Positions 23,474 to 45,314 of a stretch of DNA of 64,000 bases are shown here, in pieces. The stretch's first letter is position 1, and the number at the start of each line of letters is the position of its first letter. Both the position numbers and the translations under genes were made by a program. The notes beneath the pieces were generated by a model that made no database searches, had not been told where the DNA came from, and saw nothing but the letters and a program-made list of their open reading frames with translations. Source of the DNA: an uncultured Bacilli bacterium (GTDB lineage Bacteria; Bacillota_I; Bacilli_A; RFN20; CAG-826); assembly GCA_905236395.1 (NCBI GenBank), contig CAJOPR010000058.1:2515-66514 (forward strand). Reading direction: 5' to 3'.

Positions 23474-25321
23474 ATGAGTAAGAAAAAAGAAATTGCCTTT
23501 TGGATAGTTATTGGTGTTTTATCCGTGATTATTACCGGATTTACACTCTTCTATTTTGACCTCGCAAATGGTCCTTTAATTTGCTTTATTTTAGAACTCA
23601 ATGTCATTGGTGCCGCTATTACAGTGCGCATTTTATTAAGACATAAAAAGTTTGTGATTAGAATGATACCAACACTAGCATTTGTGGTATCAACAGCAAT
23701 CATCCTTCCATTAACTAAACCAGCAGTGGAACATAAGTCTGCAGCCTATTATTCTAATCCCGTTCCTACAGAAGTTCTTTCTTTAGAAAATGGTGATATT
23801 AGAGGTGTGTTATCTAAAGATAAAAATGTTCAGATTTATGCAGGCATACCATATGCGAAAGCACCTGTAGGTGATTTAAGATGGAAAGAACCTCAACCAG
23901 TGGAAAACTGGGAAGGCGTCAGAGACTGTTCATATTTCGCTCCTCGCTCTATGCAACCAGCGGGTAACGCAATCACGAATACACTCGTGGATATCTACGC
24001 CGCGAAAGGGTGGCATCCAGATTACATGATGCATCCTGAGCAAGATATGTCTGAAGACTCCTTATATTTAAATATCTGGAGACCAAATAATGACAAAACC
24101 AATTTACCAATCTTAGTCTTTATCCATGGTGGATCTCTCACAACCGGTTCATCAGCCTATGAAGATTACAATGGAGAACAGATGGCCAAACAAGGCGTCA
24201 TCATGATTACCATTACATATCGTTTAGGTGTCTTTGGTTATTTTGCTCACGAGGAACTAACTAATGAATCACCAAACCACACAACCGGTAACTATGGTCT
24301 TTTAGACCAAATCCAAGCTTTGAAATGGGTTAAAGCTAACGCGCATTGCTTTGGTGGTGATGCTTCTAGAGTAACTATCGCAGGTGAAAGCGCAGGATCA
24401 TCAAGTGTGTCCGCGTTATGCACCTCCCCATTAACAACAGGTTTATTTAAGTATGCAATTGGTGAGTCATCATCTTTGGTGGTCAAACAAGCCCCACATA
24501 CATTTAGAAAACTTGAGAAGGCCAAAGAAACCGGCGAGAAAATCATGAAGGAATTTAAATGTTCCTCCATTGAAGAATTAAGAAAAGTACCGGCGAGTAA
24601 ACTAGTTAATACAAAATATTCCAACTCAGAAATGACTTTAGATGGATATGCATTAACAAAGCATCCATATAAGGTCTATGAAGACCATGAAAATAATGAG
24701 TTAGCGTTGCTAAATGGTTATAACGTTATGGAAGCAGATGCTTTTGTAGTTCCTCACTTTTTATTTAGCCCTACGAATAAAAACAACATCAAATCTCGTT
24801 TGATTAATGAGTTTGATGAAGAGACAGGTAATAAACTATATGACCTTTATAAAGATAAGATTGATAAAGACGCTTTCAACACACTCAATGAAATCATGTC
24901 TGTCTATTGGTTCATCCATCCACATCACAGTTGGTCCAATATGGCGTTAGCCGCAGATACATCTGTATATCGTTATCAATTCACTAAAGAGAATCATTAT
25001 CACAGCACTTATCACGCCGGCGAAATGATCTATGCCTATGGCAATGTCGAGAAGTGCAAAGAGAATTGGAAATATGATGACATGGATATCAAGTTATCCA
25101 GACAGATGATTAGATACTGGTCTAACTTTGTTAAGTACGGAGTTCCACATTACGATCCTGAGAGTAGCGACTTACTTCCAACATGGCCTTGCTATAGTGG
25201 TGCGGAAGGAACAACAACGATCATGGAACTCGGCGTTTGTGTCGGCCCAATGAAAGATAAATACGAAGCTGTTTATCCAATAATTGACGAATACATTGAA
25301 AAACAATTGCAAAATTCATAA
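23474..25321 (+). CDS. Carboxylesterase type B family with an N-terminal 3-TM anchor
   Basis: EDSLYLNIW, IFIHGGS and GESAGSSSV motifs of the COesterase family. Confidence 0.8.
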   Translation: MSKKKEIAFWIVIGVLSVIITGFTLFYFDLANGPLICFILELNVIGAAITVRILLRHKKFVIRMIPTLAFVVSTAIILPLTKPAVEHKSAAYYSNPVPTEVLSLENGDIRGVLSKDKNVQIYAGIPYAKAPVGDLRWKEPQPVENWEGVRDCSYFAPRSMQPAGNAITNTLVDIYAAKGWHPDYMMHPEQDMSEDSLYLNIWRPNNDKTNLPILVFIHGGSLTTGSSAYEDYNGEQMAKQGVIMITITYRLGVFGYFAHEELTNESPNHTTGNYGLLDQIQALKWVKANAHCFGGDASRVTIAGESAGSSSVSALCTSPLTTGLFKYAIGESSSLVVKQAPHTFRKLEKAKETGEKIMKEFKCSSIEELRKVPASKLVNTKYSNSEMTLDGYALTKHPYKVYEDHENNELALLNGYNVMEADAFVVPHFLFSPTNKNNIKSRLINEFDEETGNKLYDLYKDKIDKDAFNTLNEIMSVYWFIHPHHSWSNMALAADTSVYRYQFTKENHYHSTYHAGEMIYAYGNVEKCKENWKYDDMDIKLSRQMIRYWSNFVKYGVPHYDPESSDLLPTWPCYSGAEGTTTIMELGVCVGPMKDKYEAVYPIIDEYIEKQLQNS

Positions 25322-28577: not shown

Positions 28578-28973
28578 ATGAAATATAAAACCAAAAACAG
28601 AACAAAGATTATTAACTATCTCAAAAGTCATGATGATAAGCATCTCACAATCGCTGAGATTCAACGTGATTTAAAGGATATTCCACAAGCGAGTTTATAC
28701 CGTTTGATGGATTCCTTACTTGAAGAAGGATTAGTTAGAAAATATGCGATCGATCCATCCTCGCCATGTTGTTTTCAATATGTCGATAATGAACACTGTC
28801 ATGAGCACTTTCATTTAATCTGCACTAAGTGCGGAAAGCTCATTCATTTAGAGTGTGATGAAGTTGAACACCTCTTACACCACATTAAAGATGACCATGG
28901 ATTTGATGTCGATATATCTAAAGTCAATTTATACGGTTTATGTGAAGAATGCGAAAAGGAGAGTAAAAGATGA
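28578..28973 (+). CDS. Fur-family metalloregulator (Fur/Zur/PerR)
   Basis: HxH...CxxC...CxxC architecture (HEHFHLICTKCGK, LYGLCEECEK) and an N-terminal wHTH. Confidence 0.8.
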   Translation: MKYKTKNRTKIINYLKSHDDKHLTIAEIQRDLKDIPQASLYRLMDSLLEEGLVRKYAIDPSSPCCFQYVDNEHCHEHFHLICTKCGKLIHLECDEVEHLLHHIKDDHGFDVDISKVNLYGLCEECEKESKR

Positions 28974-29836
28974 CTTGGGCTAAGGTTCTGGATATCTTTT
29001 TAGATTCTCTCAAAGATAGCGCATTAGTGTTCGCTTTTGTGCTAATTATCCATGTTTTGCTGTCATTTTTTGAGCAAAAATTCGCTAATTTTTTAATTAA
29101 GAAAAAGAAAGTCGCGCCATTATTTGGCTCATTGTTCGGACTCGTGCCTCAATGTGGAACCAGTGTTCTCGGCGCAGATCTATATATTCGCAAAAGCATT
29201 TCTATCGGAACAATCGTCGCAATCTTTTTATCCTGCAGCGACGAAGCATTTATTGCGATTTTAACATCAGGAAAACCGGATAAAATGTTAATGGTTTTAC
29301 CTTTATTAGCCATTAAATTTGTGCTTGGTTTTGCGGTTGGATTACTCGTTGATTTTCTCTTTGAAAAACAAGAGATTAAAGATAATGAAGAGTATCAAGA
29401 AGAAGAGACTTGTCACGCTCATCACACTCATAACTCAAAGGTACACAAACACTTCGTTCATCCATTGCTTCACGCTTTAGAAATATTTGGTTATGTGTTT
29501 GCTATTAACTTTACTCTAGGGCTCATTATTGGGTTTGTTGGTGAAGAGAACTTCGCTAACTTCTTACTCTATAACAGATATCTCACTCCATTATTTGCAT
29601 CATTTATTGGATTGATACCTAACTGCGCATCGTCTTTGCTGTTAAGTGAATTATTCATCGAAGGTAACTTATCATTTGGTGCGTTACTTGCTGGCTTATT
29701 AGTGAATGCTGGATTAGGTATGATGGTGTTACTTAAAAACAAACAGAGTGTGAAAAACGTTCCTTGGATATTATTGATCTGCTTTACAGTTGCGGTAGCG
29801 GCAGGCTACCTAACATGTGCGATTATAGGATTCTAA
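28970..29836 (+). CDS. Two-repeat metal permease (ArsP/DUF318-like) with a His-rich loop
   Basis: Repeated PQCG/PNCAS motifs in two TM repeats. HAHHTHNSKVHKHFVHPLLH loop. Coupled to the Fur-family gene. Confidence 0.55.
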   Translation: MTWAKVLDIFLDSLKDSALVFAFVLIIHVLLSFFEQKFANFLIKKKKVAPLFGSLFGLVPQCGTSVLGADLYIRKSISIGTIVAIFLSCSDEAFIAILTSGKPDKMLMVLPLLAIKFVLGFAVGLLVDFLFEKQEIKDNEEYQEEETCHAHHTHNSKVHKHFVHPLLHALEIFGYVFAINFTLGLIIGFVGEENFANFLLYNRYLTPLFASFIGLIPNCASSLLLSELFIEGNLSFGALLAGLLVNAGLGMMVLLKNKQSVKNVPWILLICFTVAVAAGYLTCAIIGF

Positions 29837-29837
29837 A

Positions 29838-29868
29838 AGAAAACCACCCAAATGGGTGGTTCTTTATT
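29838..29868. terminator. Bidirectional terminator (aaccaccca-aa-tgggtggtt)
   Basis: Perfect 9-bp stem between convergent genes. Confidence 0.7.
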
Positions 29869-29878
29869 AATAGATTAA

Positions 29879-30625
29879 TTATTTGGCTTTGCCTTGGTTG
29901 GCGACGGCTTCCATTTGTTTTTTGAGTTCTTCTTCATCCATTAAGTAGTAGTGTTTAATGGCTTTCATATTGTCATCGAATTCATAGACAAGTGGGACAC
30001 CTGTAGGAATGTTAACACCAACGATTTCTTCATCAGGCATATTGTCGAAGTATTTAACTAAGGCTCTTAAAGAATTACCATGGGCAACCACGAGGACTCT
30101 CTTACCAGCTTCCATTTCTGGTTTAATGACTTCTTCAAAATATGGAACTGCACGTTTAACTGTCAATTCTAATGATTCATTAAGTGGTAAATCTTTTGAA
30201 TCAACATCTCTGAATTGTGCTTGTAAAGCTGGGTTTCTTGGATCTTTTGGATCTAAGGCTGGTGGTGGGCAGTCATAGGAACGACGCCAGATCTTCACTT
30301 GTTCTTCACCATACTTAGCAGCGGTCTCTGCTTTGTTTAAGCCTTGTAAGGCACCATAGTGACGTTCATTTAATCTCCAGGATTTATAAACTGGCAACCA
30401 TTCTCTATCTAATTCAAAGAGAACGTTATTCATTGTATGAATAGCTCTTTTTAATAATGAAGTATGTACGACATCAAAGTCATATCCTTTTTCTTTTAAT
30501 GCTTTACCAGCGCGGTGAGCTTCTTCAACACCTTTTTCGGATAATTCAACATCTGTCCATCCGGTAAAGAGATTGAGCTTGTTCCATTCGGATTCACCGT
30601 GTCTAATTAAAACTAGTTTGTGCAT
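29879..30625 (-). CDS. gpmA: 2,3-bisphosphoglycerate-dependent phosphoglycerate mutase
   Basis: [10 protein letters not shown] catalytic His motif. About 248 aa. Confidence 0.9.
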
Positions 30626-30691
30626 AATGCATCCTCCGTATAACAGATTTATTATACTATTTTCTAAATAGGTATAAAATAGAAATACAAT

Positions 30692-31825
30692 ATGGCAGAT
30701 AAAATAGTTAATCGAGATAAGGTCATTATTCGTACCAGTATTGTTGGCATTATTGGCAACGTTTTACTTGTTGGTTTTAAAGCAACGATCGGTTTTATTG
30801 TTGGATCTATCGCGATTATCATGGACGCGGTTAATAACTTAACTGATGCCCTAAGCAGCATTATCACAATTATCGGCACTAAACTCGCTAATAAGAAACC
30901 GGATAAAAAACACCCATATGGACATGGACGTGTGGAATATATCACATCCACGCTTATAGGTGCGATCGTATTATTCGCTGGTGGATTAGCTATCTATGAA
31001 TCAATCATATCCATCATTGATTACTTTAAGAATGGTGTTCAACCAGACTATAGTCTCGTTTCCTTATTTATCATTGGTGGTGCGATATTAGTTAAAGTCG
31101 GAATTGGCATCTTCTTTAAGATTCAAGGCAAGAAAGTTGATAGTGAAGCCTTAAAAGCATCTGGGACAGATGCATTATGGGATGCGGCCTTGTCAGGCGC
31201 CACTTTAGTGGGTGCAATATTCGCCTATACACTCGGATGGTACGTTGAAGGATATATCGGTATTCTTATCGGTTTATTCATTATTAAATCCGGTATCGGA
31301 ATTGTTAGAGAATCAATTTCCTCAATTATTGGTGAAAGACACGACATCGAAGAGACAAAACATATTATCGAAGATATTAACTCCATCGATGGTGTTAAAG
31401 GCGCGTACGACTTAATTATCAATAATTATGGACATAATAAGAATATTGGTTCTGTTCATATCGGCGTGGATGGGAAGATCTCAGCTAGGGAAATACAAGT
31501 CATTGAAAGAAACATTACTCAACTAATGTATATGAAATATAACATCACTATGACTGTAGGCATCTATGCGGATAACGAAGATTCCGAACTGACAAACGCG
31601 ATGCGCTCTACGCTTGTAAAAACGATAAAAGGAAATCCACACATCTTGCAGATGCACGGTTTCTTTGTGGATATTGAAAATAAATTCGCTAACTTTGACT
31701 TAGTAGTATCTTTTGATGAAAAAGAACCAGAGAAGTTGATTAATGAAGTAAAGGTAGCAATGGAACAAGCGTATCCCGATTACACATTCTTTGTGCAGTT
31801 AGATAAGGATTATTCGCTTAGCTAA
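30692..31825 (+). CDS. Cation diffusion facilitator (CDF) family transporter
   Basis: 6-TM N-terminal domain and cytoplasmic C-terminal domain. Confidence 0.75.
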
Positions 31826-31826
31826 T

Positions 31827-32537
31827 ATGGAAGATAGATTTTCTAGAACCAAACTTATATACGGAAATGACGCGATTGATTCTTTAAAGGATAGACACGT
31901 CATTGTTTTTGGTGTTGGCGGAGTTGGTGGTTATGTCATTGAAGCCCTAGCTAGAAGTGGTGTTGGAGAACTGACAATAGTCGATAATGACGTTGTTTCT
32001 CCATCTAATATCAACCGTCAAATAATAGCTTTGGAATCCACGATCGGAAAAGTGAAAGTGGATGTCATGAAAGAAAGGCTTTTAGATATCAACCCAGAGA
32101 TAAAAGTACATGCAAAACAGGTGTTCTTTTTACCAGAGAATGCTGATGATTTTGAGTGGTCAAAATATGACTATATTGTCGATGCGATTGACACCACAAA
32201 GGCAAAGGTCGCTCTAGTGTTAATTGCCGATAAATACAATGTACCGATTATCTCATCAATGGGAACCGGAAACAAAACCAATCCAATGGGATTTGTGGTC
32301 ACTGACATCAACAAAACAGAAGTTGATCCGTTAGCAAAATCCATCAGACAACAATTAAGAAAACTAGGTATCAAACACTTAAAAGTAGTTTATTCAAAGG
32401 AAATGCCAGTTGATAGTGCTGAAGAAAAGCAAAAAGACTGCAAAACTGGAAAAATAGTGCCGGGTAGTAGCGCTTTTGTTCCTTCCGCCGCAGGATTATT
32501 GATGGCGTCAGAAGTAGTTAAAGATTTAATAAAATAG
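31827..32537 (+). CDS. tcdA: tRNA threonylcarbamoyladenosine dehydratase (ThiF/MoeB-like)
   Basis: GVGGVGGYVIEALARSGVGELTIVDND Rossmann motif. Confidence 0.7.
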   Translation: MEDRFSRTKLIYGNDAIDSLKDRHVIVFGVGGVGGYVIEALARSGVGELTIVDNDVVSPSNINRQIIALESTIGKVKVDVMKERLLDINPEIKVHAKQVFFLPENADDFEWSKYDYIVDAIDTTKAKVALVLIADKYNVPIISSMGTGNKTNPMGFVVTDINKTEVDPLAKSIRQQLRKLGIKHLKVVYSKEMPVDSAEEKQKDCKTGKIVPGSSAFVPSAAGLLMASEVVKDLIK

Positions 32538-32566
32538 ATGCTGTGTAGGATATGGCATCTTTTTAT
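32538..32566 (+). terminator. Terminator after tcdA
   Basis: gatgc...gcatc hairpin + ttttt. Confidence 0.5.
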
Positions 32567-32657
32567 TTATGCTTCATCGAAACAATAACAATATAAATAT
32601 ATAATTGCTATTAATAATTAAAAGGACTAAACTTTATACCGAAAGGAAGATAACGGT

Positions 32658-34073
32658 ATGAAATATTTAAGTGTATCTGAAGTTGCAAAGTTGTGGAATT
32701 TAAACGAAAGAAGAGTTCGTGTTTTACTCCAGGAAGGGCGTATTGAAGGCGCTGTTTTGAAAGGTCATAAATACTTAATTCCTGAGACCGCAACAAAACC
32801 ATTAGATAGAAGAGTTAAAGGGCAAAGAGCGTTTGAAGATTCTCCTATCAAAAATAGCGAAATTGATTTTAAAAATTATAGAAAGATTTATCCAAGTAGT
32901 GATGGCTATTTTGGAAGATATGGTGGATCCTTCTTGCCGAGCAATCTTCAAAAAGCTTTTGATGAAATTTATGCCGGTTATCTAACTATTGCTAAGAGCT
33001 CAAAGTTTATTGCGGAGCTCAGAGAAATTAGAAAGAACTATCAAGGCAGACCAACGCCTATCTACCATTGTCAAAACTTATCCAATTATTTAGGAAAAGT
33101 ACAAATCTATCTTAAGAGAGAGGATTTAAATCATGGTGGTGCTCATAAATTAAATAACGCTATGGGACAAGCTTTGCTTGCTAAATATTTAGGCAAGAAA
33201 AAACTTATCGCGGAAACTGGCGCAGGCAGTCATGGATCCGCTGTTGCTATGGCGGCAGCTTATTTTGGATTAGAATGTGACATTTACATGGGTGAAGTTG
33301 ATATGGAAAAACAAGCTGCCAATGTCGCAAGAATGAGAGTGTTAGGAGCAAGAGTTATTCCTGTTTCCTTAGGAACTAGAACATTAAAAGAAGCAGTAGA
33401 CGCTGCTTTTGAAAACTATGCTAAAGAATATAAAACCGCTTTCTATTGCTTAGGAAGCGCAGTTGGTCCTCATCCATATCCATTAATGGTTAGGGATTTC
33501 CAAGAGATTATTGGTAGAGAAGCCAAACAACAATTCTTAGAAATGACTGGTGAATTACCAGATATCGTTTGTGCTTGTGTTGGCGGTGGATCTAACGCAA
33601 TTGGTATGTTTGAAGCGTTCCTAGAAGAGCCAGTTAATATCGTTGGCGTAGAACCAATGGGTCAAGGACCAGAAATTGGTAAGAATGCTGCGACTATGTC
33701 ATTTGGTAAAGAACAAGTGTTGCATGGATTTAATTCTATAGTTCTTCAAAACCCTGATGGTACCCCCGCTAATGCTTACAGCATTGCATCAGGCTTAGAC
33801 TATCCAGGTGTCGGACCAGAACATGCTTTCTTAAGAGAAATCGGAAGAGTCAAATATGAAGCCATCACAGATGATGAAGCCGCTGAAGCATTCTTCTTAT
33901 TGTCTAAGCTTGAAGGCATTATTCCAGCGATTGAATCAAGTCACGCTCTAGCGTACGCCATTAAATGCGCTAGAAGAATGTCTTCTGGAAGCATTTTAGT
34001 TAACTTATCTGGTAGAGGCGATAAAGACCTCGATTTCATGATCGAAAAATACCCTCAGTACTTAAATCAATAG
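32658..34073 (+). CDS. trpB: Tryptophan synthase beta-like PLP enzyme with an N-terminal HTH (MerR/excisionase-like) domain
   Basis: Residues 1-45 form an HTH_17-like segment. The remainder matches canonical TrpB, e.g. [11 protein letters not shown]. No trpA adjacent. Confidence 0.75.
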
Positions 34074-34121: not shown

Positions 34122-35042
34122 ATGAAAAAACGTCTACACTTTTACATCGTGGGTGGCATTTTGTTAATTGGCATCATCCTCGGTTCCATTTTTGATTTGC
34201 AAATTAACGAGTTTCTATTTGACCGTTACAACGGCTTTGGTTTAGCGGTATCTGCCTTTGGCATGATTCCTGGATACGGATCACTTACCTTTATGGGTGG
34301 TGTTTTATTCGCTTTAACGTTACATAGTAAAGAGTTTAAGACATGGCTCAAGGTTATCTTCTATATCTTCAGCGTTACCTTATATGGTTTAGCGGTCTAT
34401 TTCTTAGGCCGTGATGTTTTTAACATCAACGGTTTCTATAGCCCTCAAATATCCTGGTTAGGTTTCGTCATTATGGGATTAATTAATATTCCTATTGGAT
34501 ACTTCGGATATTGGATGGGTAAAAGAAACACCAACCCAAAAATGTGGATTATTGTATTAATTCTTGCTGTTGCTATGTTCGTGGCGCTTGTGCCATTCAC
34601 CACATTGCTAAAAGCAATTATGCATCGTCCAAGATATAGAATTGCTATTTATGAAGGACATATTGGTTTCCGTAACTGGTGGCAAGTCACAAGTAACTAT
34701 AAGGATTATATTGATGCTTCTTTAGGTGCATTAACCAAAGATGAGTTTAAATCATTCCCATCTGGTCACTCCAGCGCGACATTATGTTCACTTATCACCC
34801 TCATCTTAATTCCAATGTTAGAACCAAAGATGAAGGACTACGATGTCGTCTTATTCTATTCTGGATTTGCGTGGACATTGCTAATTATGTTCTCTCGTAT
34901 GCTTGTAGGCGCTCACTTCTTGAGTGATGTATGTTTCGGCGCACTCATCACACTTGTATGCGTGTACATTGGAAACGAAATTATTGTTCGTAAATTTCTT
35001 CCTAAGGAAGAACCTGCAAAGGAAGTAGTTGCAAATGAATAA
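34122..35042 (+). CDS. PAP2-family membrane phosphatase
   Basis: KxxxxxxRP-like, PSGH and SRxxxxxHxxxD motifs (PSGHSS, SRMLVGAHFLSD). Confidence 0.7.
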   Translation: MKKRLHFYIVGGILLIGIILGSIFDLQINEFLFDRYNGFGLAVSAFGMIPGYGSLTFMGGVLFALTLHSKEFKTWLKVIFYIFSVTLYGLAVYFLGRDVFNINGFYSPQISWLGFVIMGLINIPIGYFGYWMGKRNTNPKMWIIVLILAVAMFVALVPFTTLLKAIMHRPRYRIAIYEGHIGFRNWWQVTSNYKDYIDASLGALTKDEFKSFPSGHSSATLCSLITLILIPMLEPKMKDYDVVLFYSGFAWTLLIMFSRMLVGAHFLSDVCFGALITLVCVYIGNEIIVRKFLPKEEPAKEVVANE

Positions 35043-36435
35043 GAAAGTATTGGTATTAGCCATTACTGCTTTATTAATGGTGGGATGTGCACAACGTGGA
35101 ACATCCTCAGTTACCAGTGAATCATCTAGTGGTTCAGGATCAAGTTCTGAATCTTCCAGTGAAGGACAATCTTCTTCCGGTGAATCCTCTTCAGGTGGAG
35201 AATCATCAAGTGAAGATTCATCGAGTGAATCATCTTCTAGTGAGGAAGAGCCACAAGAAGAAACTCCCACAGATTTAGGTGTGATGACTATTGCTCAAGC
35301 TAATGCTTGGCTAGAAGAACATAAGGGAGAAATTCCGAGACATGCTAATGACAGTCGCAATGGCGTGGATAAAACAAGGATGATAACGGTTAGAGGCTAT
35401 GCGATTGGCAAGTTTGACACAGTTAAAACTATGAAAAAATATGGTTTAGACAACAATAAACCAGGCCGTGTTATTTTAGGCGATGTTAATGGTTATATTG
35501 TTGTTGAATCTGATGTCACTAAGGGTGGATCAAATTTATATGACAAACTTGATGACAAATATGTTAATAAGGACACTTCTAAATATGAAGTGACTGGATA
35601 TCCATCCATCACAATGGGCCAAGTCCATTTGCAAATTCCCAGTAATAAAAATTTCTACACATTAAATCAAAATTTAGATATCACTAAAAATATATCTTCT
35701 TATATTGATGAAACCATTGAATTGTCTGAATTCTTTAACGAAGTTAAAGACACTCAATATAACTGCTCTGGTCATGGATATGACAAGGTCTATTGCATTA
35801 ATTCTTTAACCTGTTACCATTACAATTCCAAAGACAATTTCTATTATTTCACTGACGGCGAAAGAATTGTAAAAGTCATGGATCAAAACTTAACTGCCAG
35901 TATAGGGTATAAGTACAATGTTATTGGCATGGCCACAACAAAAAACTATGCTCCAGCTATCCAAGCTATTTCTCTTGAACCTGTAACGGGCGAAGGTGCT
36001 GCTGTTGACACTTCAAAGGCGATCACTCGTGGTAGTGTAGACTTATTAAAAATTAAAACCTCGCAAGATGAAACATCAACAAGGTTTGACAATTTCGTCT
36101 TATCCTTTGGTGGTATTTACAAAGCGGAAGTTCATTTCAATGTTGCTACCGAGAATTCGAATTATTATGTTGGATTCTCAGATGCCGTTTTAAATAGTGG
36201 GAAAGAAATTACTGGTAAGGATAACGCAGGAACTGCCGGTCTTGTCTTCGTGGACAACAATAGATTTTGGAATGTGACAAAAACAGAAATCAACACCTAT
36301 AACGGTTATAAAGACCTTATTGGCAAGAATGAAACGGGCATGGTTTATTACATTCCAGTTCAAGTGACGTATTCCTCAAATAAACCAATCTACAAGGTTT
36401 TCTTATTGCCAGAAACCATTCCTGCAGTCGTGTAA
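35035..36435 (+). CDS. Lipoprotein with a Ser-rich linker, unknown function
   Basis: Lipobox LLMVGC. SSESSS low-complexity segment. ATG at 35035 with RBS aaggaag; the supplied ORF track starts at a TTG at 35029. Confidence 0.6.
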   Translation: MNKKVLVLAITALLMVGCAQRGTSSVTSESSSGSGSSSESSSEGQSSSGESSSGGESSSEDSSSESSSSEEEPQEETPTDLGVMTIAQANAWLEEHKGEIPRHANDSRNGVDKTRMITVRGYAIGKFDTVKTMKKYGLDNNKPGRVILGDVNGYIVVESDVTKGGSNLYDKLDDKYVNKDTSKYEVTGYPSITMGQVHLQIPSNKNFYTLNQNLDITKNISSYIDETIELSEFFNEVKDTQYNCSGHGYDKVYCINSLTCYHYNSKDNFYYFTDGERIVKVMDQNLTASIGYKYNVIGMATTKNYAPAIQAISLEPVTGEGAAVDTSKAITRGSVDLLKIKTSQDETSTRFDNFVLSFGGIYKAEVHFNVATENSNYYVGFSDAVLNSGKEITGKDNAGTAGLVFVDNNRFWNVTKTEINTYNGYKDLIGKNETGMVYYIPVQVTYSSNKPIYKVFLLPETIPAVV

Positions 36436-38856: not shown

Positions 38857-40065
38857 TTGAACTCAGTTATGCGTTCGATTAAAGATGTATTTGTTATAGG
38901 ACATGGACCAAGCTCATCACATACGATGGGTCCGGCTTTTGCATGTGAGTACATACTTAAAAAGTATCCAAATGCCAGATTTATCAGTGTGACTCTTGCT
39001 GGTTCTTTAGCCTTAACTGGTAAAGGTCACTTAACCGATTACATCATTGATTTAAAACTAAAACGAATTCCTCATGTCATCAACTTCAATTTCCGGAGGA
39101 AACCTAAACACCCTAATACAATGTACTTTGTTATTGAAGATAATGAAGGAAAGACATATAAAGAAGCAGTTGTTTCTATCGGTGGTGGAACGATTCTCAC
39201 AGAAGATCATCCAGAAGTTGAAAATAACGATGTATATCCACATCGTAAACTATCAGAAATACTTAAGTATTGCGAAGAAGAAAAACTCTCTTTAGCGCAA
39301 TATGTGGAACGCTTCGAAGATAGTGACATCAGAGAATATATTGAAAAGATTTATCAAACCATCAAAGAATGCCGTGAAAGAGGTATTGCTGCGACTGGTG
39401 AATTGCCTGGTTCATTACATCTCCCAAGAAAAGCGCATACTATGTATGAAGCAGCTTGTCAGATTAAAGATGGCACGAAGAACATTCATATGATGATGGC
39501 TATCTCATCCTTCGCAGTTGCTGAAGAAAATGCTTCTGGTGGAGTGGTGGTTATAGCCCCGACATGTGGATCCGCAGGTGTTATCCCTGGCGTGCTTACA
39601 TATTGTGTGATGAAAGACATGCCACATGAGAAGATTATTGATGGCTTATTAGTCGCTGGATTATTCGGTGTACTTGCTAAATCTAACGCATCCGTATCAG
39701 GTGCGGAAGCAGGCTGTCAGGCAGAGATAGGCGTAGCCTGTTCAATGGCAGCGGCGCTATGCGGAGCGGCGCAAAGCTTCTCTAACCAAGATATCGCTCA
39801 ATCCGCGGAAATTGCGCTTGAACATTCGCTTGGGTTAACATGTGATCCTGTATGTGGATACGTACAGATTCCGTGTATCGAAAGATGTGCGATGTTCTCC
39901 CTTAAAGCGGTGAACGCAGCGACACTTGCAAAACTCATTCCAGCAAGTGAAGCAAAGGTCAGTTATGATGATATCCTAAAGACCATGCTTCAAACCGGAA
40001 AAGACCTACAAGATGGGTACCGAGAAACATCCATCTCAGGTCTTGCAAAAGTAGTGAAAAAATAA
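38857..40065 (+). CDS. sdaA: L-serine dehydratase (single-chain, iron-sulfur dependent)
   Basis: N-terminal IGHGPSSSHTMGP motif. Cys residues for the 4Fe-4S cluster. Confidence 0.8.
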   Translation: MNSVMRSIKDVFVIGHGPSSSHTMGPAFACEYILKKYPNARFISVTLAGSLALTGKGHLTDYIIDLKLKRIPHVINFNFRRKPKHPNTMYFVIEDNEGKTYKEAVVSIGGGTILTEDHPEVENNDVYPHRKLSEILKYCEEEKLSLAQYVERFEDSDIREYIEKIYQTIKECRERGIAATGELPGSLHLPRKAHTMYEAACQIKDGTKNIHMMMAISSFAVAEENASGGVVVIAPTCGSAGVIPGVLTYCVMKDMPHEKIIDGLLVAGLFGVLAKSNASVSGAEAGCQAEIGVACSMAAALCGAAQSFSNQDIAQSAEIALEHSLGLTCDPVCGYVQIPCIERCAMFSLKAVNAATLAKLIPASEAKVSYDDILKTMLQTGKDLQDGYRETSISGLAKVVKK

Positions 40066-40096: not shown

Positions 40097-41470
40097 ATGT
40101 ATCGTAAAAATGCCTGGTTGAAATACGACCAAAAACAAGTCAAAGAAGTGATGAAATTCGCAGAAGGCTACAAAGATTTCTTATCATTTAGCAAGACCGA
40201 ACGTTTAGCGGTCAGATATGCGAGTAAATTACTTGATGCAAAAGGATTCAAAAGAGCGGAAGAACTTAAATCCTTAAAAGTAGGCGATAAAGTTTACTTT
40301 ATTAACAAAAATAAAAACGTCTGCGCATTCATCGTTGGTAAAAAACCACTTGAAGAAGGATTAAGAATCTTAGGTGCTCACATTGACTCACCTCGATTAG
40401 ACTTAAAGGAACACCCAGTCTATGAAAAGAACGGTTTCGCTTTAGGTGATACCCATTACTATGGTGGAGTTAAGAAGTATCAATGGACCACAATCCCACT
40501 AGCCTTACACGGTGTTGTCTGTAAGAAAGATGGCTCTGTTGTCGAAGTTAATATTGGTGAAGAAGAAAAAGATCCAATCGTTGGTATTACAGACTTATTA
40601 ATTCACTTATCTCAAGATCAAATGCAAGCCCCTTTAGCCAAAGCTATCACTGGTGAAAACTTAGATATTACCTTAGGTAGTATGCCATTAGATGAAAAGA
40701 GCAAAGAACCAGTTAAGGCCAATGTCTTAAAACTCTTAAAGAAGAAATATGGTTTTGAAGAAGAAGACTTAGTCTCCGCGGAAATTGAAATCGTTCCTGC
40801 TGGTAAAGCAAGAGACTACGGTCTAGATAGAAGCATGGTCGCTGGTTATGGTCACGATGATAGAAGCTGTGCTTATACATCCTTAATGGCATTATTAGAT
40901 GTCGAAGCAGAAAAAGTTGAATACACAGCTTGCTGTGTTTTAGTGGATAAAGAAGAAATCGGTTCTGTCGGTGCGACAGGCGCTCAATCATTATTCTTTG
41001 AAAACACAATTGCTAGATTAGCGGCATTGATGGGTTCTAAAGACGCTTTATTCTCCGCGAGAAAAGCGATGGAAAATAGCAAGATGTTATCAAGTGACGT
41101 CTCTGCAGGATTCGACCCATTATATCCACAAGTGAACGATCCAAAGAACGCCGCGTACTTTGGTGAAGGTATTGTTTTTAACAAATATACTGGTTCACGT
41201 GGTAAATCCGGTTCCAATGACGCCAACCCAGAATACTATGCATTCATCAGAAAAGTTGTTGATGAAGCAAATGTTAACTGGCAGAATGCTGAACTTGGTA
41301 AAGTTGACCAAGGTGGTGGAGGCACAATCGCCTACATCTTAGGTAACTACAATATGAACGTTATTGATGCTGGTATTCCAGTGCTCAACATGCACGCTCC
41401 TATGGAAATCGTCAGTAAAGCCGATGTCTATGAAGCATATCGTGCATATCTAGCATTCTTAGTTGCTTAA
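40097..41470 (+). CDS. M18-family aminopeptidase
   Basis: ILGAHIDSPRLDLKEHP and GYGHDDRSCAY motifs. Confidence 0.7.
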   Translation: MYRKNAWLKYDQKQVKEVMKFAEGYKDFLSFSKTERLAVRYASKLLDAKGFKRAEELKSLKVGDKVYFINKNKNVCAFIVGKKPLEEGLRILGAHIDSPRLDLKEHPVYEKNGFALGDTHYYGGVKKYQWTTIPLALHGVVCKKDGSVVEVNIGEEEKDPIVGITDLLIHLSQDQMQAPLAKAITGENLDITLGSMPLDEKSKEPVKANVLKLLKKKYGFEEEDLVSAEIEIVPAGKARDYGLDRSMVAGYGHDDRSCAYTSLMALLDVEAEKVEYTACCVLVDKEEIGSVGATGAQSLFFENTIARLAALMGSKDALFSARKAMENSKMLSSDVSAGFDPLYPQVNDPKNAAYFGEGIVFNKYTGSRGKSGSNDANPEYYAFIRKVVDEANVNWQNAELGKVDQGGGGTIAYILGNYNMNVIDAGIPVLNMHAPMEIVSKADVYEAYRAYLAFLVA

Positions 41471-41658: not shown

Positions 41659-41689
41659 AAGCGTTGATTGAAATCAGCGCTTTTCTTTT
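41659..41689 (+). terminator. Terminator after tRNA-His
   Basis: gcgttgatt-g-aaatcagcgc + ttttctttt. Confidence 0.5.
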
Positions 41690-43380
41690 ATGTCATAAAT
41701 GTAATAATTTATATAAGCATGAAAGAACTTAAAAGAACATTATTAAGAATGGGATTTTACTATTTATTACTTTTAGTAAACACCGTTTTTTCTTTCAGTT
41801 TTATCAACGATAATTTCCCCGCCAGAAACTTACCAACCATTTATTTGCTAGTTTTATCATTTTGCTTAGTTTTATATTACTCACACCGCCTTCCCCCTAA
41901 AGGAACCACTTCGTTTTTAATGAAGTCAATCGCTTGGTCAGCGGTGTTATTAATTTTATTCCGTAGTATCAAGTACAGCGCTTTCTTTTCCGTAGATGTC
42001 TTAGCAAGGCATACATGGTATTTCTATTATGTCCCTATCCTAGTGATGCCTCTATGTTTATTCTTTATTGCTTTGTTAGTTTCTAGAAAGCAAGGTGATC
42101 GTTTCCCGATCGCCTGGATTTGGGTGGTTATATTAACTGGCATATTCATATTGCTAATATTAACTAACGACCTCCATCAACAAGTATTCAAATTCCAAGA
42201 AGGCTTTGTGGATTGGAACAACAATTATGATCATGGTTGGTTATTCTACGTTATTAACGTATGGCAATATTCTTTATATATCGCTGCGGTTGTCATTTTA
42301 ATTGTCAAATGCCGTATCAGTGAATCCAAAAAGAACGCTTGGGTCATCTTAATTCCAGCGACTATCGGTGCGGTCTTATATGTATTGCTATTAACTGGTT
42401 TTGTTCCAAAACTATTCGGTTCTACGATTATCGAATTCCCTGAAGCGCACATCTTCACCATCGCTGTGGTCGTGGAGTGTTGTATCCAACTAGGCTTAGT
42501 GCCAACAAACAATGAATATGGAAAGATATTCCAAAACCTTTCAATTTCATCTGAAGTCACTGATGAAAAAGGCAATCCTATCTATATCTCCAGCAGTGCT
42601 ATCCCAATAACTAAGGAGCAATTTGAATTAGAAAGCGGTTCTAGGATTGAAGAACACACAGTTCTATATAAAATGAAACTCCCTGGTGGATATGGCTTCT
42701 GGCAAGATGATATGAAAGAGCTAGACCGCATTAATGAAGAACTACAAGACGCCAAAGAAGGATTAGAACAAGAAACAGAACTAATTAGACTCCGTAATGA
42801 GCTTGAAGAACAACAAGCTAAGATTAGACAGAGAACCATCCTCTATGACAAGATTGCGGAAGCCACAAAAAGACAATCTCAAACTATCTCTGAGCTTGCT
42901 AAAAAAGCAAAAGCATCTGAAGATGCAAAACTAAAAGATGAATATAGAAGAAGAATTGTTTTACTAGGTGCATATATCAAAAGATATGCGAATTTAACAT
43001 TATTATCGCAAGAGAGTGCGATGATTGAGGTTGGTGAATTAAAACTATCAATTGCTGAGCTTTTACATTATCTCAATTATTATGGTGTTCCTGGTGAACT
43101 AGTGGGTGAGGCTAAATCATCCATCTCTTCTGATTCCGCTTTAGCGATATTTGAAGTATTGGAACTTGTGATTGAAGATAATTTAGATTCTATTAAAGGT
43201 GTTTTTATCAATCTTCTTATCGAAGACAATGTCAAATTGAAACTCATTGTGGAGGACATGAAACATCCTTTTAGCAAAGAGATAACTGAAGAATTATCAA
43301 AAGTGGATGTTCTTACCGATGCGATGGTGGAAGATGATGTTACCTATATCACCTTTAGCGTGAAGAAAGGAGAAAAATAA
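41668..43380 (+). CDS. Multi-TM sensor-like protein with a coiled-coil and a degenerate histidine-kinase-like C-terminus (pseudo-kinase)
   Basis: 6 TM helices, then a coiled coil. No conserved His in the H-box-equivalent region, and N/G-boxes are degenerate. The likely true start is MKELK at 41719. Confidence 0.5.
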   Translation: MKSALFFYVINVIIYISMKELKRTLLRMGFYYLLLLVNTVFSFSFINDNFPARNLPTIYLLVLSFCLVLYYSHRLPPKGTTSFLMKSIAWSAVLLILFRSIKYSAFFSVDVLARHTWYFYYVPILVMPLCLFFIALLVSRKQGDRFPIAWIWVVILTGIFILLILTNDLHQQVFKFQEGFVDWNNNYDHGWLFYVINVWQYSLYIAAVVILIVKCRISESKKNAWVILIPATIGAVLYVLLLTGFVPKLFGSTIIEFPEAHIFTIAVVVECCIQLGLVPTNNEYGKIFQNLSISSEVTDEKGNPIYISSSAIPITKEQFELESGSRIEEHTVLYKMKLPGGYGFWQDDMKELDRINEELQDAKEGLEQETELIRLRNELEEQQAKIRQRTILYDKIAEATKRQSQTISELAKKAKASEDAKLKDEYRRRIVLLGAYIKRYANLTLLSQESAMIEVGELKLSIAELLHYLNYYGVPGELVGEAKSSISSDSALAIFEVLELVIEDNLDSIKGVFINLLIEDNVKLKLIVEDMKHPFSKEITEELSKVDVLTDAMVEDDVTYITFSVKKGEK

Positions 43381-44618
43381 TGGTCTCCTTTAATATGCTA
43401 TCGAGTTTAGTTAGAGCGTTTTTTGCCCTTTGGGCATTGCTTTTATGTGTCATTAATATTGCTAACGCAGTTATGGCGTTTGATAAAAAGAAATACCTCT
43501 TTGGTTCTATTGGTACTATTTTGTTCTTGCCGATCTATTTCTTTTGGCAGGTGATGTTTGATTACGTTTTATACGAAAGCGGTGGATCTCTTAACGTTGT
43601 TTCTAACGCAATGGTGAATCTAGATTGGATTTATTGGTTGTTAATCTTTGTGGTCTTAACTGTATTCACCGTCATTTTACTTGTTTACAACGTTCACTAT
43701 GAGAGAAATAACCTTACAGTTAATTCTATTAAGTTATATCTAGACCAAGTCGACTGTGGTGTCTGTTGTTATAAAGAAAACGGTAGAGTGATGTTCACCA
43801 ACATGACTATGAACCAGTTATGTATAAAATTAACAGGAACACAGTTATTAAATGGCAATCAGTTCTATGAAGCCACAAAGGATCAAATTCTTTCCATTGG
43901 TGAAGAGAGATGGAGATTCTCCTCTCGCGATATCTCTATTGGCAATGAACATATGCGTGAGATTATCGCCACAAATGTCACAAGCGAGTATTTAAAGACA
44001 CAACAATTAGAAAAAGATAAGCTTGAATTATCAAAGATAAATCAGGAATTACAAAATTATAACTTAAGTATTGATGAAGTGGTTCGACACCAAGAAATAT
44101 TACAAGCCAAGATTAACATTCATGATGAGATGAATAGATTAATGCTTTCCACAGTGGCCACAGATAGTGATGATATCTCTAACTTAGATAAGATATTTGC
44201 CTTTTGGCAAGAGAATGCTTCGCTTCTCTCTATGGAAGCAGAAGAGAATAAACAAGAAGTGATGTCTCATAAGATTGAAGAATTAGCTAGAGCTTTAAAG
44301 ATCCGTTTAGTGTGGAAAGATGAATCGGTCACCATATTAAGTGAAGAAGAAAGAAATATCTTTTATGTAGCCGCTCAAGAGGCTATCGCTAATGCGTCAA
44401 AACACGCGAAAGCGGATAGGATGATTATTTCTATTGTTAAAGTGGATGGACATATTGAATGTCGCTTTATCAATAATGGTGAATTACCCGATAAAGAAAT
44501 TACCTTTACCGGTGGATTATCTAACTTAGAAAAACTCATTAAAAAACAAGGAGCCTCTATCAGAGTTAGTAGTGATAAACAGTTTGTTTTATCTCTCATA
44601 TTTTTGAACAAAAAATAA
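43380..44618 (+). CDS. Sensor histidine kinase (HisKA_3/NarL class)
   Basis: TM helices. H-box INIHDEMNRL. HATPase N-box AIANASKHA. ATGG overlap with the upstream gene. Confidence 0.75.
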   Translation: MVSFNMLSSLVRAFFALWALLLCVINIANAVMAFDKKKYLFGSIGTILFLPIYFFWQVMFDYVLYESGGSLNVVSNAMVNLDWIYWLLIFVVLTVFTVILLVYNVHYERNNLTVNSIKLYLDQVDCGVCCYKENGRVMFTNMTMNQLCIKLTGTQLLNGNQFYEATKDQILSIGEERWRFSSRDISIGNEHMREIIATNVTSEYLKTQQLEKDKLELSKINQELQNYNLSIDEVVRHQEILQAKINIHDEMNRLMLSTVATDSDDISNLDKIFAFWQENASLLSMEAEENKQEVMSHKIEELARALKIRLVWKDESVTILSEEERNIFYVAAQEAIANASKHAKADRMIISIVKVDGHIECRFINNGELPDKEITFTGGLSNLEKLIKKQGASIRVSSDKQFVLSLIFLNKK

Positions 44619-44681
44619 TACTAACGGCTGATATGAGTAATAGAAACTTTTAGATAGAATAAAAGTAAGGATTATTAATGT

Positions 44682-45314
44682 ATGGCGTATAAAGTCTTGA
44701 TCGTGGAAGATCAAAACATTCCTTCAGAATTATTTAAGATTTATATCGAAAGTAGTGAGGACTTTGAACACGTTCTCTCTATTTCTAATGCCTCATTAGC
44801 CTTATCAGTCTGTCAGAGCAACGAAATTGATCTCATCCTTATGGATGTTATGACTGACCTTGGCCATAATGGCTTAGATGCCGCGGAAGAAATTAAAAAG
44901 AAATACCCAAAGATTAAAGTCATTATCATCACCTCAATGCCGGAATATTCCTGGCTCAGAAAAGCGAGGAAGATCGGCGTGGATTCCTTCTGGTATAAAG
45001 ATGGTCAAAGAAATAGTCTTTTAGACATCATGAAAAGAACCATGAATGGAGAACATATCTATCCAGATGAAACACCAGTGGTGCGTATTGGTGAGGCCAC
45101 AAACCATGACTTTACTGAAAGAGAACTAGATGTTTTAAAAGAATTAACCACAGGGGACACAAACGCGGAAATCGCGAAGAGATTGTTTATCTCTGTGGCT
45201 ACGGTGAAGAGTCATATTCAACACCTTATGGAAAAGACGGGATTTAAGACGCGTACAGAGCTTGTTAGTGAGGCGCGTGGATTAGGAATCGTCATTAAAG
45301 ATAAGAACAGTTAA
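44682..45314 (+). CDS. Response regulator, LuxR/NarL family
   Basis: Receiver domain (LILMDVMTD) plus a C-terminal LuxR HTH (ELDVLKELTTGDTNAEIAKRLFISVATVKSHIQHLMEK). Confidence 0.85.
   Translation: MAYKVLIVEDQNIPSELFKIYIESSEDFEHVLSISNASLALSVCQSNEIDLILMDVMTDLGHNGLDAAEEIKKKYPKIKVIIITSMPEYSWLRKARKIGVDSFWYKDGQRNSLLDIMKRTMNGEHIYPDETPVVRIGEATNHDFTERELDVLKELTTGDTNAEIAKRLFISVATVKSHIQHLMEKTGFKTRTELVSEARGLGIVIKDKNS

Follow-up and report, generated by a model that had tools for sequence, protein, structure and literature searches.

A helix-turn-helix domain fused to an orphan tryptophan synthase beta subunit in uncultured gut Bacilli, with a candidate operator at its start codon

We describe a gene from an uncultured Bacilli bacterium in which a winged helix-turn-helix (HTH) domain is joined, in one reading frame, to a complete tryptophan synthase beta subunit (TrpB). 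The gene lies in a stretch of 64,000 nucleotides (assembly GCA_905236395.1, contig CAJOPR010000058.1, positions 2,515 to 66,514 of the forward strand), which we refer to as the window. The fusion is conserved in uncultured rumen and gut bacteria, the loci examined hold no trpA, and a short inverted repeat is preserved across the ribosome-binding site and start codon of the gene. We consider the family and its cis element solid. The mechanism that we infer from them, which comprises enzyme activity without TrpA, DNA binding, use of the repeat as an operator and control by ligand, is that of an active stand-alone indole-salvage TrpB that would also repress its own gene through a pair of HTH domains bound at the repeat; we give this reading about an even chance.

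A complete TrpB core behind an N-terminal extension

The reading frame is open throughout (Table 1), and the motifs quoted for it by a first-pass annotation of the window, VGGGSNAIG among them, are present. That annotation had also called the core canonical, and this stands: the protein scores 536 bits against TIGR00263 (cut-off 392.45), with residues 83-463 covering model positions 1-383 of 385, and 144 bits against Pfam PALP. The nearest solved structures are a reconstructed ancestral TrpB (5ey5_B, 482 bits) and Pyrococcus furiosus (Pf) TrpB (5dvz, 447 bits), whose alignments span fusion residues 83/84 to about 460, and identity to canonical TrpBs is 50-56%. Aligned to PfTrpB, the catalytic positions are all retained (H163, K164, E186, T187, H192, G309-G310-G311-S312-N313, D381, E426 and S451). 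The lysine that carries pyridoxal phosphate (PLP) is K164 (codon 33147-33149), and K164, E186, G309-N313, D381 and S451 correspond to Pf K82, E104, G227-N231, D300 and S371. The sole deviation at catalytic positions is S191, which replaces the usual Gln (Salmonella Q114) in all 120 of the 120 fusion clusters listed. Since ordinary TrpBs with an adjacent trpA carry the same change (8 of 53), we regard Ser191 as a natural variant and have rejected it (in the motif AETGAGSHG) as a mark of altered chemistry. Judged by its residues, the TrpB domain looks active.

The protein is not a TrpB2 enzyme: TIGR01415 (TrpB2; PRK12391) gives 190.7 bits against a cut-off of 518.85, and the match begins at residue 115, so that the N-terminus is not the TrpB2-type extension that the first-pass annotation had named as the alternative. 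The closest TrpB that lacks an HTH comes from a Victivallaceae metagenome-assembled genome (MAG; locus L026, 66% identity). It starts with MDFSTYFSNYPDEKGYFG, which aligns from fusion residue 69, and on this basis we divide the fusion into HTH (1-45), family tail and tether (46-68) and TrpB (69-471). The earlier figure of about 45 residues of HTH_17-like sequence thus fits the HTH domain itself, but the extension as a whole is longer, for a native TrpB begins only near residue 69.

Table 1. Positions of the fusion gene, its leader elements and the related genes in other loci. Window positions carry no prefix; L numbers denote other loci.
Feature	Position	Strand	Remarks
Intrinsic terminator of the upstream ThiF-family gene (PF00899)	32536..32568	+	Stem-loop 32536-32560, 11-pair stem plus TTTTTATTT, T-run
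Promoter-like site TCGAAA-17-TATAAT	32577..32605	+	Consensus scan, 10/12 matches
Upstream half-site-like element GGACT (consensus GG[A/T/C]AT)	32624..32628	+	7 nt before ATACC
Inverted repeat ATACC(G)-N14-(C)GGTAT, candidate operator	32636..32659	+	6-bp arms in the window; covers the Shine-Dalgarno sequence (32642-32649) and the AT of the start codon
Fusion open reading frame	32658-34073	+	ATG start, 471 aa, 0 internal stops
Winged helix-turn-helix, HTH_17 / excisionase type	residues 1-45, 32658..32792	+	Pfam, NCBIfam, AlphaFold2
KPLDRRVKG tail of the HTH family, then disordered tether	residues ~46-68, 32793..32861	+	AlphaFold2, alignment
Complete TrpB1 core, PLP fold type II	residues 69-471 plus stop codon, 32862..34073	+	TIGR00263, residue table, AlphaFold2
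Genes of the predicted catalytically dead sister clade	L084:5321-6700, L085:1279-2640, L166:3479-4795, L168:2573-3928, L169:2040-3356, L170:459-1793		

The fusion is genuine and conserved

The whole architecture recurs, at 83-99% identity and 99-100% query coverage, in over 120 protein clusters (ENA, NCBI, Logan and JGI) whose members are 470-473 residues long (a few 478-480). The fusion is carried by 26 GTDB species-representative genomes, of which 25 matched from residue 1 and one (L024) from residue 3. The carriers are without exception MAGs from the rumen or gut, and their labels are Bacilli, Erysipelotrichaceae, Bacillales or Ca. Enteromonas; the more divergent members are L024 (72% identity) and P0276/L171 (69%). 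The ratio of nonsynonymous to synonymous substitution rates (dN/dS), computed across 23 loci, is lowest for TrpB (0.08), higher for the HTH (0.17) and highest for the linker (0.30); these NG86 values are rough, with dS near saturation. All three parts are under purifying selection.

The possibility that a frameshift, a misassembly or a wrong start codon had joined a small excisionase-like gene to trpB deserves practically no weight. The same frame recurs in more than 120 independent clusters and about 25 species genomes, the start MKY is conserved with a Shine-Dalgarno (SD) sequence 8-10 nt upstream, no Met occurs between residue 1 and the TrpB core, and the junction is under purifying selection. 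No cluster shows the stop or frameshift between HTH and TrpB that the first-pass annotation had named as a refutation, and the fusion that it proposed is real.

NCBI names these proteins "tryptophan synthase subunit beta", and a precomputed HTH_17 (PF12728) annotation is attached to just 9 of the 120 clusters listed, from which we conclude that annotation pipelines mostly overlook the HTH and that the family is, as a result, invisible in current databases.

The N-terminal domain

HTH_17 (PF12728) matches residues 3-44; the score is 25.1 bits in a search of the whole protein, while the N-terminus by itself reaches 28.4 bits (gathering score 27). TIGR01764 ("excise", the excisionase family of DNA-binding proteins) gives 28.8 bits, which equals its cut-off. 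PHROGs adds weak matches to excisionase and DNA-binding families, including phrog_2655. An exhaustive HMMER search of residues 1-100 against 1.84 billion representatives found 1654 proteins at E<=1e-3. Many of these are stand-alone proteins of 65-100 residues, about 50% identical over the pattern M.Y....EAA.KW.I..RRVR.L...GRI.GA......W.IP..A.KP.D.R., and the tail KP.D.R.K is common to the fusion and to the stand-alone homologues. Some proteins of the LuxR, AraC, response-regulator/kinase and N6-methyltransferase types also begin with a domain of this HTH subfamily (P0253 is of the last type). Five relatives of 200-325 residues (P0122, P0125, P0127, P0128 and P0135) consist of 4-6 tandem copies of this HTH_17 subfamily domain, an unusual all-HTH architecture.

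An AlphaFold2 model built from a 38-sequence family alignment has a mean predicted local distance difference test (pLDDT) score of 91. Residues 1-45 adopt a beta-alpha-alpha-beta-beta arrangement (pLDDT 81-89) made up of strand 2-4, helix 6-12, helix 17-25 (which carries NERRVR), strand 33-35 and strand 38-42; a single-sequence model of residues 1-70 gives the same winged HTH fold. The wing is followed by a disordered linker (residues 53-63 below 50) and then by the TrpB core (above 90), on which the HTH is not docked. The top structural neighbours found with Foldseek, none of them significant, are HK022 Xis, BldC, the MerR-family domains of NmlR, CueR and BmrR, Pukovnik Xis and Tn916 Xis, with root-mean-square deviations mostly of about 2-2.6 Å and of 5 Å for HK022 Xis; a profile search of the HTH against Protein Data Bank (PDB) sequences gave nothing below E = 0.8. 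The 1654 relatives, the predicted fold and the structural neighbours agree, and we therefore take the domain to be a real excisionase/MerR-type winged HTH by sequence and model, if a marginal one on curated thresholds. Of the earlier label "MerR/excisionase-type", the HTH fold survives and the fuller likeness to MerR does not: the model contains neither a coiled coil nor a MerR effector domain, and the fusion protein has no MerR match in Pfam or NCBIfam.

A conserved inverted repeat over the start codon

The terminator in Table 1 separates the gene from the upstream ThiF gene, and a promoter-like site follows it, so we consider the fusion gene to be its own transcription unit. The last 45 or so nucleotides before the ATG are conserved in all active-fusion loci (those outside the catalytically dead clade described below) as TATAAT-A-GG(A/T/C)AT-N7-ATACCG-[SD]-N-GGT-ATG; the rest of the intergenic regions cannot be aligned, and the upstream genes differ between loci. 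In most orthologous loci TATAAT is located directly 5' of the AGGnAT element, unlike the promoter-like site of the window. A T-box, a riboswitch or another Rfam element upstream was considered and rejected, as the whole window has no match at gathering thresholds; the intergenic region measures 120 nt.

The exact repeat ATACC-N14-GGTAT stands at the start site in 24 of 27 active-fusion loci. Its left arm, ATACC or the variant GTGCC, lies 22 nt before the ATG in 26 of the 27 and 25 nt before it in L024. In that locus GGTAT is retained 1 nt before the ATG and does not overlap it, and the start codon alone therefore does not explain the conservation of the right arm. The arms are conserved and the spacer is variable, except for the SD sequence, whose position shifts by 1-2 nt. 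The repeat does not occur in 840 kb of ordinary trpB loci. In the half-site-like element further upstream, G12 and G13 are invariant in 26 leaders and the middle base varies; the density of GG[ATC]AT-N7-ATACC is 47 per Mb in fusion loci, compared with 3.6 in control loci. Two arms at a fixed spacing are what a dimeric DNA-binding protein would need. We propose the repeat as a candidate operator for the fused HTH or, alternatively, as an mRNA hairpin that would hide the AUG.

The window holds two matches to the repeat where 0.24 would be expected by chance, and at least two were seen in 4 of 100 shuffles. The match other than the one at the start codon, ATACC-N15-GGTAT at 23666-23690, is inside a carboxylesterase gene (23474-25321) and fits chance. 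The locus L081 (and likewise L082, L083 and L023) has a second ATACC-N15-GGTAT site (ATACCGTATTCGGTAATGAAGGTAT; L081:12297-12321) inside the 3' end of the unannotated 282-residue gene that follows the fusion; an esterase-like gene lies about 140 nt further on. This second site may be due to chance or may be another binding site. A regulon search for further motif sites returned only the coding match at 23666 and this site within an ORF of L081-L083 and L023.

A sister clade that has lost the catalytic residues

A second group of HTH-TrpB-like proteins, 438-463 residues long (P0150, P0208, P0265, P0271, P0273, P0274 and fragments), scores 172-289 bits against TIGR00263 and has replaced much of the active site. 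In Pf numbering, K82 has become Tyr or Phe, the preceding H81 Leu or Ile, and H110 Tyr; the GGG of the phosphate loop has changed to x(I/V)A, and D300 to Gly, Ser, Glu or Asn. The HTH residues, in turn, are invariant among these proteins. The clade is rare, with about eight clusters of 1-9 members. A metagenome-contig scan with an alignment of the dead fusions returned canonical TrpBs only; the back-translated pattern, YIKREDL, is common to all TrpBs.

The genes are followed by DegV (in some loci then by VTC and DUF4956), an AAA_33 kinase and Peptidase_M18. A conserved, unannotated gene of about 156 residues comes directly after the fusion in L084, L085, L168 and L170, four of the six loci. 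Because this downstream order matches that of the window, we regard them as positional orthologues in a related lineage; compared with their counterparts in the window, the DegV proteins are 63-64% identical and the AAA protein 44%. That the HTH is kept after catalysis is lost implies that its function outlives catalysis, and these proteins are probably pseudo-TrpBs, as far as their residues can tell, that only regulate. One further protein, P0272 (463 residues), resembles the dead clade in its N-terminal half (NSMY, AECGDANYA) and canonical TrpB in its C-terminal half (GGGSNA, GLDYPGIGPEH). Such a protein must stem either from misassembly or from natural recombination, and because it looks like a chimera it was left out of the arguments.

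A TrpB without trpA in its loci

A TrpA hidden Markov model, built from 27 TrpA sequences of control loci and found to recover 32 open reading frames (ORFs) in those loci as a positive control, has no match at E<=1 across the 535 kb made up of the window and 34 related fusion loci. Nor did Pfam identify a trp gene among the 30 window proteins scanned, which comprise the neighbours within about 15 kb on the upstream and 20 kb on the downstream side and one distant ORF. The TrpB is thus an orphan within the loci examined, as the first-pass annotation had said of its flanks. The active fusion sits in at least 10 different gene neighbourhoods, and the Pfam scans of its neighbours showed no integrase or mobile-element context.

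The HTH-free TrpB of L026 (L026:10001-11191), from a different phylum, is 64-67% identical to all fusions and also has no trpA within 10 kb. This suggests that an orphan TrpB subfamily spread horizontally among gut anaerobes before it gained the HTH.

Discussion

We propose that the C-terminal 400 or so residues would make L-tryptophan from L-serine and the indole of the rumen or gut, with trpA absent near the gene. As TrpB is a dimer, two HTH domains would be presented together, each on a flexible tether of about 25 residues. The pair would bind ATACC-N14-GGTAT, with a third half-site-like GGnAT 7 nt upstream; this repeat extends over the ribosome-binding site, the ATG and the region where the transcript would start, and its occupation would repress the gene. 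Which ligand the TrpB domain carries (serine, indole, tryptophan) would probably modulate this repression. The data suggest autoregulation of the fusion gene, a notion already raised by the first-pass annotation and one that gains support from the position of the repeat over the ribosome-binding site and ATG, from the purifying selection on the HTH and from the retention of the HTH in the dead clade.

Several observations weigh against this mechanism. The activity of TrpB1 enzymes is usually low when TrpA is absent. The HTH_17 and TIGR01764 scores are only marginal, at curated thresholds, and the HTH model has no significant match in the PDB (best E 0.12), although this is to be expected of a domain of 45 residues. 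The half-sites are 19 bp apart from centre to centre, a distance that does not correspond to a whole number of turns of the DNA helix. Upstream of the dead-clade genes a repeat is clear in L085 alone (TCGGTAT-N9-ATACCGA, about 25 nt before the ATG); none is clear in the others, though they have the same recognition helix, ERRVR. Finally, the repeat could act as RNA, since the five one-sided changes in its 5' arm are all A to G and keep G-U pairs.

In this last alternative UAUACC would pair with GGUAUG in a hairpin that holds the AUG in its stem and the SD sequence in its loop and controls translation or mRNA stability, and the HTH would act on other promoters or not on DNA at all. Folding of the leaders does produce such a structure: the arms form a stem of 5-9 bp, with minimum free energies (MFE) of -4.5 to -10.9 kcal/mol and z scores of -0.3 to -3.2, and this is the predicted MFE structure in four of the five leaders folded. 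The variants GTGCC (L008, L019) and ATGCC (L171) are A-to-G changes compatible with wobble pairing, and in most loci, where the two arms follow the -10 box, the transcript would contain both. The stem has only 5-6 bp, however, its loop has 12-14 nt, and MFE and z are as weak as -4.5 kcal/mol and -0.3; the central pair is broken in L012, no Rfam family matches, and in L024 and L171 a TATAAT only 1-4 nt before the 5' arm means that this arm may not be transcribed. Counting of the arm pairs gave no compensatory double changes, five one-sided A-to-G (wobble-compatible) cells and one break, and shuffled controls equalled the observed counts; this covariation analysis, which covered two alternative leader hairpins, was uninformative. 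We consider control at the RNA level rather unlikely.

Two other explanations concern the HTH, and we find both improbable. The protein might mainly be a transcription factor for other genes, with the TrpB domain as a sensor of indole, serine or tryptophan and catalysis secondary or residual. The dead clade shows that the architecture is viable without catalysis, the HTH subfamily heads LuxR-, AraC- and response-regulator-type proteins, and MocR/GabR offers a precedent (PMC5734734, PMC5320631). A mere sensor is nevertheless hard to reconcile with the full set of catalytic residues, with the TrpB core being the most constrained part of the protein and far above the TrpB equivalog cut-off, or with the lack of a second motif site near other window genes. 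Slightly less probable again is a non-transcriptional HTH, one that anchors the enzyme on the nucleoid or on a partner protein, or that takes the place of TrpA as an intramolecular activator of TrpB. The full activity of a TrpB1 normally depends on TrpA, which the loci lack, and the N-terminal extension is conserved, all of which would suit such a role; yet the AlphaFold2 model leaves the HTH undocked on a disordered linker, the domain shares about 50% identity with small stand-alone HTH proteins and with the DNA-binding heads of regulators, and the conserved repeat at the gene's own start site would go unexplained. Autoregulation by a dimeric HTH-TrpB at the repeat accounts for that repeat, and it is the reading we prefer.

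A broader proposal is more tentative, and we think it less probable than autoregulation by the active fusion alone. HTH-TrpB may be an undescribed family of transcription factors built on a PLP enzyme of fold type II, in a series that leads from an orphan TrpB (Victivallaceae-like) through a bifunctional, self-repressing "trigger enzyme" that senses indole, serine or tryptophan to a pure pseudo-enzyme regulator (K to Y/F) that occupies the same place in the chromosome. If this is true, these proteins would be indole- or tryptophan-responsive regulators in uncultured gut bacteria.

Compared with canonical TrpB1 (Salmonella; PfTrpB, 5dvz), the fusion has the same core, PLP lysine, indole-activating Glu, GGGSN loop, closed-state Asp and Ser to the PLP N1, and differs in its roughly 68 extra N-terminal residues with the HTH, in the absence of trpA from the loci examined and in having Ser for Gln114. 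The TrpB2 enzymes of archaea and Thermotoga are indole-salvage tryptophan synthases. Salvage of indole is also known for the TrpBA of genital strains of Chlamydia trachomatis (PMC8376405) and for gut Bifidobacterium (PMC11085991). As in those cases, the fusion is a TrpB kept where the remaining pathway is missing or unlinked, in an indole-rich, host-associated habitat. Chlamydia retains TrpA as an allosteric activator, whereas none is seen in the fusion loci; and the salvage enzymes of Chlamydia and Bifidobacterium and the TrpB2 enzymes are not known to have a DNA-binding domain, whereas the fusion has an HTH and is a TrpB1, not a TrpB2.

A parallel in layout is the C5-DNA methyltransferase M.SsoII, in which an N-terminal region (residues 1-71) is followed by a flexible linker and the enzyme domain, and the N-terminal region binds an operator at the enzyme's own promoter in proven autoregulation (PMC3978073); M.Ecl18kI, an enzyme of the same kind, is laid out similarly and likewise binds an operator at its own promoter (PMC2760811). 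The fusion (1-45 / 46-68 / 69-471) shares the N-terminal DNA-binding region, the flexible linker and the complete enzyme, but its enzyme is a metabolic PLP enzyme rather than a DNA enzyme and its operator binding is predicted. MocR, GabR and PdxR combine a GntR winged HTH, a linker and a dimeric effector domain of the fold-type-I aminotransferase kind (PMC5734734, PMC5320631). The fusion likewise has an N-terminal winged HTH, a linker and a dimeric domain with a PLP-enzyme fold; its HTH, however, is of the HTH_17 and not the GntR type, its enzyme is a PALP of fold type II and not type I, and its catalytic residues are kept. Further enzyme-derived regulators are BzdR (PMC3602430) and RbkR (PMC5397151); the dead K-to-Y clade parallels the non-catalytic MocR domains, and RbkR the active bifunctional form. 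A plant TSB-like pseudoenzyme, an allosteric activator of TSA, has E-to-A and D-to-E changes, and the PLP lysine is not among the two reported (PMC12727527). Like it, the dead clade is a TrpB paralogue that appears to have lost catalysis and to be retained for a non-catalytic role, but it has lost the lysine, the His and the phosphate loop, and it carries an HTH. The HTH itself resembles Xis (HK022, Tn916, Pukovnik) and BldC in being a beta-alpha-alpha-beta-beta winged HTH of about 45-55 residues; those proteins are free-standing and serve in recombination or as multimeric regulators, whereas here the domain is fused to a dimeric enzyme.

Our literature searches found no description of an HTH-TrpB fusion, and nothing specific on whether these MAG lineages are auxotrophic for tryptophan. 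Fusions of enzymes with regulators are known, as are orphan TrpBs that salvage indole; the present family would combine the two in a PLP enzyme of fold type II, with a natural series from active to dead. If our reading is correct, a PLP fold-type-II enzyme, TrpB, joins the short list of enzymes that double as transcription factors, and the active and dead forms, as positional orthologues, would be a rare natural snapshot of the change from enzyme to regulator. Indole is a major interspecies signal in the rumen and gut, and the fusion points to indole salvage and its control in abundant, uncultured, reduced-genome Bacilli of these habitats. A TrpB1 that works without TrpA would also be of interest for biocatalysis, as stand-alone TrpB activity elsewhere had to be engineered.

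Neighbouring genes and other features of the window

Upstream of the fusion lie genes for a Fur-family regulator, a metal exporter, a phosphoglycerate mutase (assigned by eye), a CDF transporter and the ThiF-family protein. The metal genes make up a homeostasis cluster (28578-31825) with the Fur-family regulator at 28578-28973, an exporter of the ArsP_2 type with ten transmembrane segments at 28970-29836 and a CDF cation-efflux protein at 30692-31825; it is interrupted by the phosphoglycerate mutase-like ORF of 248 residues on the minus strand (29879-30625).

Downstream follow PAP2, a Ser-rich lipoprotein, DegV, an acyltransferase, an AAA_18 kinase-like protein, L-serine dehydratase and Peptidase_M18 (40097-41470). 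The putative lipoprotein (35029-36435, 468 residues) has a long Ser/Glu-rich low-complexity stretch after its signal peptide and only a weak compositional match in Pfam, and its TTG start overlaps the end of the PAP2 gene. The L-serine dehydratase (38857-40065) is a fusion of alpha and beta parts (SDH_beta and SDH_alpha) and is encoded 4.8 kb downstream of the TrpB gene. Serine is the co-substrate of TrpB; the proximity is probably a coincidence, and the gene is not conserved beside the fusion in other loci. Further downstream, a two-component-like cluster (41668-45314) encodes a HisKA_7TM membrane protein of 570 residues, a 412-residue protein that belongs to no family and a LuxR-type response regulator of 210 residues.

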